The notes under the pieces are model-generated. The model saw only the letters and a list, made by a program, of their open reading frames with translations. It was not told the origin of the DNA and made no database searches. A stretch of 13,760 nt of DNA from Candidatus Micrarchaeota archaeon (lineage in GTDB: Archaea; Micrarchaeota; Micrarchaeia; Anstonellales; Bilamarchaeaceae): the NCBI GenBank assembly GCA_018304385.1, contig JAGVWJ010000040.1, forward strand, positions 1 to 13,760. Direction: 5' to 3'. Position 1 is the first letter of the stretch. Every line of letters starts with the position of its first letter. Positions 1,023 through 1,090 of the stretch are shown piece after piece. Made by a program: the position numbers and the translations under genes.

Positions 1023-1062
1023 GGCCACGATCAGTTTGAACTACGGTTCAAATCTCGTGGCC
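1023..1062 (+). ncRNA. Hairpin copying the tRNA-His acceptor stem (minihelix-like element in the tRNA 5' leader)
   Basis: GGCCACGA (1023-1030) pairs perfectly with TCGTGGCC (1055-1062). Both are identical to tRNA-His positions -1..7 and 66..73. The inner 7-bp stem TTTGAAC/GTTCAAA is closed by a cUACGg (UNCG) tetraloop. The structure is seen directly; its function is unknown. Confidence 0.6.
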
Positions 1063-1090
1063 GCATATTCGTTTGGCCACGATAGTGTAG

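Follow-up and report, generated by a model that had tools for sequence, protein, structure and literature searches.

The hairpin upstream of a micrarchaeal tRNA-His gene is one member of a dispersed hairpin family

The hairpin that directly precedes the tRNA-His gene of a Candidatus Micrarchaeota archaeon (family Bilamarchaeaceae, assembly GCA_018304385.1; genome G000, with other G numbers denoting relatives) is one member of a dispersed hairpin family and is not specific to tRNA-His. It lies on the plus strand at positions 1023–1062 of the window, which is the whole 13,760-nucleotide stretch of contig JAGVWJ010000040.1 that was analysed. The hairpin is probably one copy of a duplicative cassette that is dispersed across this order of small archaea. 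The core of such a cassette, here termed hp1, consists of the letters TCNG, a helix of 7–8 bp whose base is fixed (TTTG/CAAA) and whose tip is free and covaries, and the letters TCT. About 30% of copies are built into the first bases of a gene in the order X – hp1 – X′ – spacer – X. Here X stands for the opening 7–36 nt of a gene or transcript, and X′ repeats the bases beside hp1 in inverted form. At tRNA-His, X is the 5′ strand of the acceptor stem with G-1, and X and X′ would rebuild the acceptor helix beneath hp1 by construction.

The tRNA-His gene and its hairpin

The tRNA-His(GUG) gene occupies positions 1075–1305 of the plus strand. It has three introns and no encoded CCA, and its exons lie at 1075–1090, 1131–1153, 1213–1227 and 1286–1305. 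A simple scan for bulge-helix-bulge (BHB) motifs recovered introns 2 and 3 at exactly these exon borders. Both ARAGORN and Rfam missed the gene, and the two together (Rfam at gathering score) reported nothing in the window or in 15 other loci that hold hairpin copies. These tools are blind here, as ARAGORN detected just two tRNA genes in the whole 1.53 Mb of G000 with introns allowed. Hairpin modules of the tRNA-His introns (for example, 1155–1175 and 1230–1250) recur at 11 further places in the genome, and intron 1, in the D-loop, has a similar CTTGAAC/GTTCAAG hairpin. The gene upstream of tRNA-His (68–970) has no Pfam match, is present in all 99 of the 99 family genomes searched, and adjoins tRNA-His in many of them.

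A reading made from the sequence alone had described an 8-bp helix equal to the acceptor stem, with the G-1:C73 pair included and GCA following, and rereading of the letters confirmed each of these statements as well as the geometry of the hairpin. The base helix pairs GGCCACGA (1023–1030) with TCGTGGCC (1055–1062), which are the same 8 bp as those of the tRNA-His acceptor stem. A 3-nt bulge separates this base from an upper 8-bp helix (1034–1041/1046–1053) with seven Watson-Crick pairs, one G.U pair and the loop UACG (1042–1045), and GCA stands directly 3′ of the hairpin at 1063–1065. The upstream arm is, as had been claimed, a duplicate of the tRNA 5′ end. This direct-repeat copy (T GGCCACGA T, 1022–1031; X-up hereafter) is identical to 1074–1083, and nine bases of the arm (GGCCACGAT) recur past a 12-nt spacer as the start of the tRNA-His gene.

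The family core, as delimited by an alignment of 20 copies and the covariance model described below, spans 1031–1055 and comprises TCAG, the upper helix with its loop, and TCT. X′ (1055–1062) can pair either with 1023–1030 or with the true 5′ strand at 1075–1081. The spacer runs from the inverted copy to the tRNA (1063–1074), and comparison with orthologues shows that its motif ATTCGTTT is common to G023 and G008, and almost so in G054. The likeness of the 3′ arm to the tRNA 3′ end is real as a match, but it consists mostly of CAAATCT, which are letters of the family and not of a T-arm.

The 40-nt hairpin has a predicted stability of −25.1 kcal/mol (z −6.77); the values are the same for a 43-nt hairpin RNA, and 0 of 200 shuffles were equally stable. 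An assembly artefact behind the region, a concern raised by the same reading, is unlikely, because a 1307-nt Logan contig, built from runs of two studies that possibly include the source sample, reproduces 700–1638 with 0 differences. No joint that skips the hairpin was found among Logan contigs.

The only A/T-rich box at promoter distance is a TATA-like sequence at 982–995 on the plus strand, upstream of the hairpin as had been stated. It is the likely promoter of tRNA-His, with a predicted transcript start near 1016, just 5′ of the hairpin, and similar A/T boxes occur in G017 and G023, 25–38 nt 5′ of their upstream repeat copy. Since this sole box lies upstream, and since the 12-nt spacer is too short to hold a promoter, the hairpin is very likely situated within the leader of the pre-tRNA. 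Its removal by RNase P, likewise deduced from sequence, is plausible because a candidate archaeal RNase P RNA is present in G000 (C40:14199–14404, locus L123). This candidate covers the full model length at 69.4 bits, below the Rfam gathering score of 84, and may be a reduced form.

Distribution and turnover of the family

A pattern search of the whole G000 genome (1.53 Mb, 36% G+C, 65 contigs) recovered 21 hairpins, compared with 0–3 in shuffled genomes, and about 15 of the 21 are clear family copies by eye. These share a frame of TCNG, a helix that starts with TTTG and ends with CAAA around a free tip, and TCT. Among the 20 aligned copies, the letters T, TTG and C, AA, C, T are invariant. 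Within CAAATCT, five letters (C, AA, C and T) are invariant and the remaining two are at least 70% conserved, whichever gene is the neighbour. In the family helix, pairing stands at 96%, two positions show four pair types each, and 0 of 500 shuffles reached the observed covariation. A second hairpin (CTCGAA..TTCTCGAT) often follows hp1; a K-turn reading of this hairpin was rejected, as it would imply a bulge of 4 nt and ordinary pairing accounts for the sequence better.

Copies were counted with a covariance model (R1) built on the hp1 core, which matches the window hairpin at 1025–1063 (40 bits, E 6e-8). It finds 19 copies in G000, 34 in the congener G002 and 27 in G005, and a search of a further congener, G001 (92% complete), returned 0 copies. 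Within this archaeal family, 29 of 61 genomes, belonging to 19 of 23 genera, have a match, and bursts are seen in other families of the order, with 12 equal-scoring copies in G034 and 23 copies in G116. Across the order, the patchy distribution of copies takes in intergenic sites, gene starts and in-frame positions within proteins, and many copies meet their flank at a GA|TC-like junction. The copies showed no orientation bias relative to genes (21 same-strand, 16 opposite, 15 both), and 11 of them lie inside opposite-strand reading frames. Independent insertions are fewer than the number of copies, because several copies are located in paralogous genes.

Comparison of equivalent loci indicates that the family is gained and lost within a genus. 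The start of SRP54 carries a copy in G000 and G002, and an unrelated short leader in G001 and G004. The type-2 IPP isomerase (IDI2) of G000 has an in-frame copy that amounts to 18 extra residues relative to G001 and G004. This copy (C57:12930–13010, L036) has two hairpins, is flanked by the 8-nt direct repeat AGTCTTGA, and is missing in G001, which has empty sites both here and at the SRP54 start. In a gene for an MBL-fold protein, G000 and G005 have a copy directly behind codon three, and G042 has a start-duplicating version at the same place. The presence of the tRNA-His leader hairpin itself also varies within genera (G000 versus G001; G054 versus G007, G065, G075 and G044).

One subfamily, comprising G000 C7:26068–26130 and loci L072–L075 and L086 of G002, has the hairpin TCGTGACC-TTCG-GGTCACGA before hp1, and several of its copies are in paralogous genes. 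This additional hairpin is nearly a copy, in permuted form, of the acceptor helix of tRNA-His, and L086 shows a G.U intermediate. A cassette linked to tRNA-His may have been the source from which the subfamily was copied.

The tRNA-His leader was examined in 25 family genomes. At least nine of these, from seven genera, have hp1 together with an upstream repeat (G000, G005, G017, G023, G008, G054, G084, G087 and G063), and a tenth leader, in G093, looks degenerate. Pairing within hp1 is kept by double changes (AAC/GTT to AGC/GCT), and G017 has an added pair. Synteny and covariation in related genomes had been proposed as a check on the hairpin, and the outcome is divided: the hp1 core is kept with compensatory changes, but the acceptor mimic and the GCA are not. 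The bases after X′ are AGA or ATT in orthologues, and X′ has one mismatch in G005, G087 and G063 and two in G017 and G023. In G084 and G054 the register is shorter, with ATGGCCA as the repeat and TGGCCAT as X′. The latter contains the complement of two bases of the leader, a sequence without counterpart in the tRNA 3′ end, so the source of X′ is the adjacent X and not that 3′ end. On these comparisons, the acceptor mimic is not a conserved feature of orthologous leaders. X-up is letter-perfect in six genomes (G000, G005, G017, G023, G087 and G063) despite diverged spacers, which hints at either constraint or repeated young insertions. The upstream copy has decayed in G008 and G054, and the copy joined to the tRNA is intact in all carriers.

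Leaders without hp1 have either a different hairpin family against the tRNA-His end (G001, G004, G097 and G086) or nothing. In these four genomes (loci L125, L131, L143 and L146, respectively), a hairpin of AAACTTTT, a 3–5-nt loop such as CCT, and AAAAGTTT abuts the tRNA-His 5′ end. In reverse orientation, the AAACTTTT/AAAAGTTT stem is similar to the TTTTAGGAAAA hairpins of the tRNA introns. In G007 (L013, minus strand, about 1160–1400), a tandem repeat of T-loop-like TTCGAATCT units is located just downstream of tRNA-His beside a run of N, and may represent an assembly problem or a repeat array.

The layout at gene starts

In the full layout (X – hp1 – X′ – spacer – X), the actual gene start is the downstream X. 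The 5′ flank (8–36 nt) is repeated within 100 nt downstream in 26 of 89 copies, compared with 4 of 89 in a mirrored control, and 10 of those 26 have an inverted flank copy right after TCT (0 in the control). Examples include SRP54 (ATGGATC), an NFACT-like gene (ATGAAAC), hisA in G021 and the MBL-fold gene. Where the target is a protein gene, the long hairpin has a base helix that duplicates the start codon, and the three-part layout puts the start codon in a second hairpin. The acceptor look-alike at tRNA-His is most likely a by-product of the same construction: the acceptor helix, G-1:C73 included, would be rebuilt because the duplicated X happens to be the acceptor 5′ strand. The hisA copy prompted consideration of a histidine regulon, which was rejected, as copies are found at SRP54, NFACT-like, MBL-fold, Dph2-like and many other genes.

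The start of the Dph2-like gene (MKILLQFPEG) has one or two tandem hp1 copies in five genera (L058, L046, L056, L083 and L049), accompanied by gene-start repeats of 26–36 nt and a newly added ribosome-binding site. In two genera, an Ala-like tRNA (L065 in G073, L070 in G008) has hp1 after a 15-nt copy of its own 5′ end, which corresponds to the acceptor strand and the start of the D-arm. At start-duplicating copies of protein genes (G000 C40 L034 and C1 L040; L045, L052, L082, L058, L089, L106 and L049 in relatives), the old ATG opens a frame of 14–30 codons through the hairpin. These upstream frames end within −5 to +4 nt of the real ATG in nine of ten strict cases, four of them as an ATGA overlap, and look like a relay for translational coupling.

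According to the preferred model, the cassette at tRNA-His would be transcribed within the 5′ leader from a promoter upstream of X-up. It would fold first during transcription (−25 kcal/mol), occupying X′ and freeing the true 5′ strand, and would then be discarded by an RNase P cut at 1074/1075. The origin of the layout is less certain. It could lie in templated repair or replication at a break near a gene start, in which an ectopic hp1 is copied, snap-back on the new hairpin generates X′, and re-annealing upstream generates the direct repeat. More speculatively, this would follow the logic of synthesis-dependent microhomology-mediated end joining (SD-MMEJ), for which snap-back and loop-out templated insertions are described (PMC2943611, PMC5728401).

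In its most novel sense, the finding would be a self-propagating element that copies the start of a transcript both ways, and whose decoy/antisense/target module is kept as a 5′-leader device, serving as a relay frame to the start codon at protein genes and as an acceptor-stem gate at tRNA-His. This stronger claim is doubtful.

Alternative explanations and known systems

A functional leader switch or insulator is an unlikely explanation. Here the X-up decoy would hold X′ off the true acceptor 5′ strand, or release X′ to it, thereby gating the folding of tRNA-His and its processing by RNase P. The mutually exclusive folds that the sequence-only reading had envisaged do exist in the folding models. 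When 1015–1090 is folded alone, the hairpin described by that reading forms with a pair probability of 0.997, and its 3′ arm can alternatively pair with the true tRNA 5′ strand across 12 nt. For the whole precursor, spliced or unspliced, the predicted best fold is a swapped one (probability 0.98), with the tRNA 3′ end as the partner of X-up and the true 5′ strand as that of X′. Hairpin plus cloverleaf is calculated at −53.7 kcal/mol and the swapped fold at −55.6 kcal/mol, a gap of 1.9 that is inside the method error and makes the two near-isoenergetic. The leader could interfere with tRNA folding, because the equilibrium best fold of the precursor is the swapped one, and the order of transcription would favour the harmless fold, that is, hairpin first.

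The near-equal energies, the perfect X-up in six genomes with differing spacers, and the recurrence at protein genes of the three-part layout with the start codon in a second hairpin speak for a switch. However, X′ has one or two uncompensated mismatches in most orthologues, and X′ of G008 and G054 retains its pairing with the true 5′ end although the decoy there has decayed. The leader has no ligand- or protein-binding feature beyond a simple hairpin and no Rfam match, and family copies lie inside coding regions in either orientation. No sign of regulation by the two folds was seen in this analysis. A selected switch specific to tRNA-His is unsupported, and the same decoy, hairpin, antisense and target arrangement at protein-gene starts, with a base helix that copies the start codon, argues against it.

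The patchy copy numbers, the bursts of equal-scoring copies, the empty sites within a genus and the GA|TC-like junctions would also suit a non-autonomous transposon of the classical MITE, REP or REPIN type that a transposase mobilises, with the direct repeat as a target-site duplication. This is quite improbable, as a fixed staggered cut does not yield direct repeats of 8–36 nt together with an inverted flank copy. Neither G000 (89% complete) nor G002 (75% complete) yielded a Y1/RAYT-type transposase (PF01797), and among the 61 genomes there is no clear co-occurrence, with the transposase in 11 of 29 repeat-bearing and 7 of 32 repeat-free genomes. An autonomous partner with matching terminal inverted repeats was not identified. 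Given the variable repeat length (8–36 nt) and the lack of a Y1 transposase whose distribution follows that of the family, a classical transposon is a poorer fit than an origin by templated synthesis.

The preferred reading, a duplicative cassette, nevertheless shares much with known repeats of these kinds. Like the REP, BIME and REPIN elements of Proteobacteria, the family consists of short dispersed hairpins with a conserved base, often beside genes and clustered, whose copy number varies between close relatives. It differs in that no RAYT/Y1 transposase was found in the two richest genomes, and in having copies in coding regions and tRNA leaders, with direct and inverted duplications of the gene start. 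Rickettsia palindromic elements and intragenic MITEs (PMC10969869) are likewise small palindromes inserted in frame in unrelated housekeeping genes, represented here by IDI2 and the MBL-fold gene. The cassette is shorter (about 25–70 nt, compared with about 150 bp for the Rickettsia elements; PMC10969869), has no fixed target-site duplication, resides in an archaeal host, and includes a subtype in which the gene start is rebuilt together with a ribosome-binding site. From MITEs it is set apart by direct repeats of 8–36 nt in place of a target-site duplication of fixed length. SD-MMEJ insertions (PMC2943611, PMC5728401) also have inverted and direct flank copies beside structure-forming sequence (X / X′ / X). 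They are one-off repair scars in flies and mammals, whereas the same hp1 core occurs in dozens of copies per genome and is spread across an order.

It is very unlikely that the hairpin is a decayed tandem duplicate of tRNA-His, of which the acceptor strands and part of the T-arm are left. The 3′ arm does differ from the tRNA 3′ end by just one substitution and a 4-nt deletion, and the CTTGAAC/GTTCAAG hairpin is also found in D-loop intron 1. Most of the T-arm-like letters, though, are invariant or at least 70% conserved in every aligned copy, protein genes included, and TGGCCAT in G084 and G054 complements leader bases that are missing from the tRNA 3′ end. Neither the hairpin itself nor any intermediate among the 25 leaders retains a remnant of a D-arm or an anticodon arm.

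Still less credible is a BHB-type intron in the acceptor 5′ strand, with X-up as the first exon and 1031–1082, or an equivalent register, spliced out. Small structured insertions in tRNA genes are a feature of this same lineage, which has many non-canonical tRNA introns. There are three in tRNA-His alone, and intron modules are repeated genome-wide. In each repeat, the palindrome GGCC is followed by ACG, the copies could pair over 4 bp with two 3-nt bulges flanking, an AC|G cut in both would give the exact mature 5′ strand, and the predicted best fold does pair X-up with the tRNA 3′ end. Nonetheless, one outer helix would be 1 bp, and the structure would compete with hairpins of −25 kcal/mol. 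The motif was not reported at the threshold that recovers introns 2 and 3, in a scan that is noisy (45 matches versus 18 in shuffles). The upstream GGCC is GGCA in G008, and an analogous cut at SRP54 would shift the reading frame. With no convincing BHB brackets around the hairpin, which lies outside the mature tRNA, and given the SRP54 frame argument, this reading was rejected.

The least probable explanation is the natural minihelix-His suggested by the sequence-only reading, which would be bound or charged by HisRS or would titrate RNase P, the CCA-adding enzyme or RNase Z. Mini- and microhelices with G-1:C73 are charged by HisRS (PMC9976931), and the 8-bp helix of G000 reproduces that pair and all eight acceptor pairs, but orthologues have one or two mismatches or another register, GCA (AGA or ATT in orthologues) stands in place of an encoded CCA, an 8-bp helix with a 4-nt loop and a 3-nt bulge replaces the 5-bp stem and 7-nt T-loop of a T-arm, and the same construction at protein genes copies start codons. 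A riboswitch or T-box leader is also a poor comparison, as there is no Rfam match, the genes beside the copies are unrelated in function, and hisA in G021 is just one site among many.

Among known kinds, REP/REPIN elements and the in-frame Rickettsia palindromic elements come closest, and the family is set apart from them by its archaeal host, the lack of a known mobilising enzyme and the start-duplicating subtype. A literature search found no published description of such repeats in this lineage.

The attractive idea of a natural HisRS decoy loses support, and look-alikes of an acceptor stem can arise mechanically. These reduced archaeal genomes carry an undescribed hairpin repeat that settles at the starts of genes and tRNAs and duplicates them, is tolerated in frame inside enzymes, and turns over within a genus. 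This has consequences for gene calling, through false starts and short upstream frames, and for the detection of tRNAs. The family may also expose an archaeal mechanism of templated repair or mobility that operates without a known enzyme.
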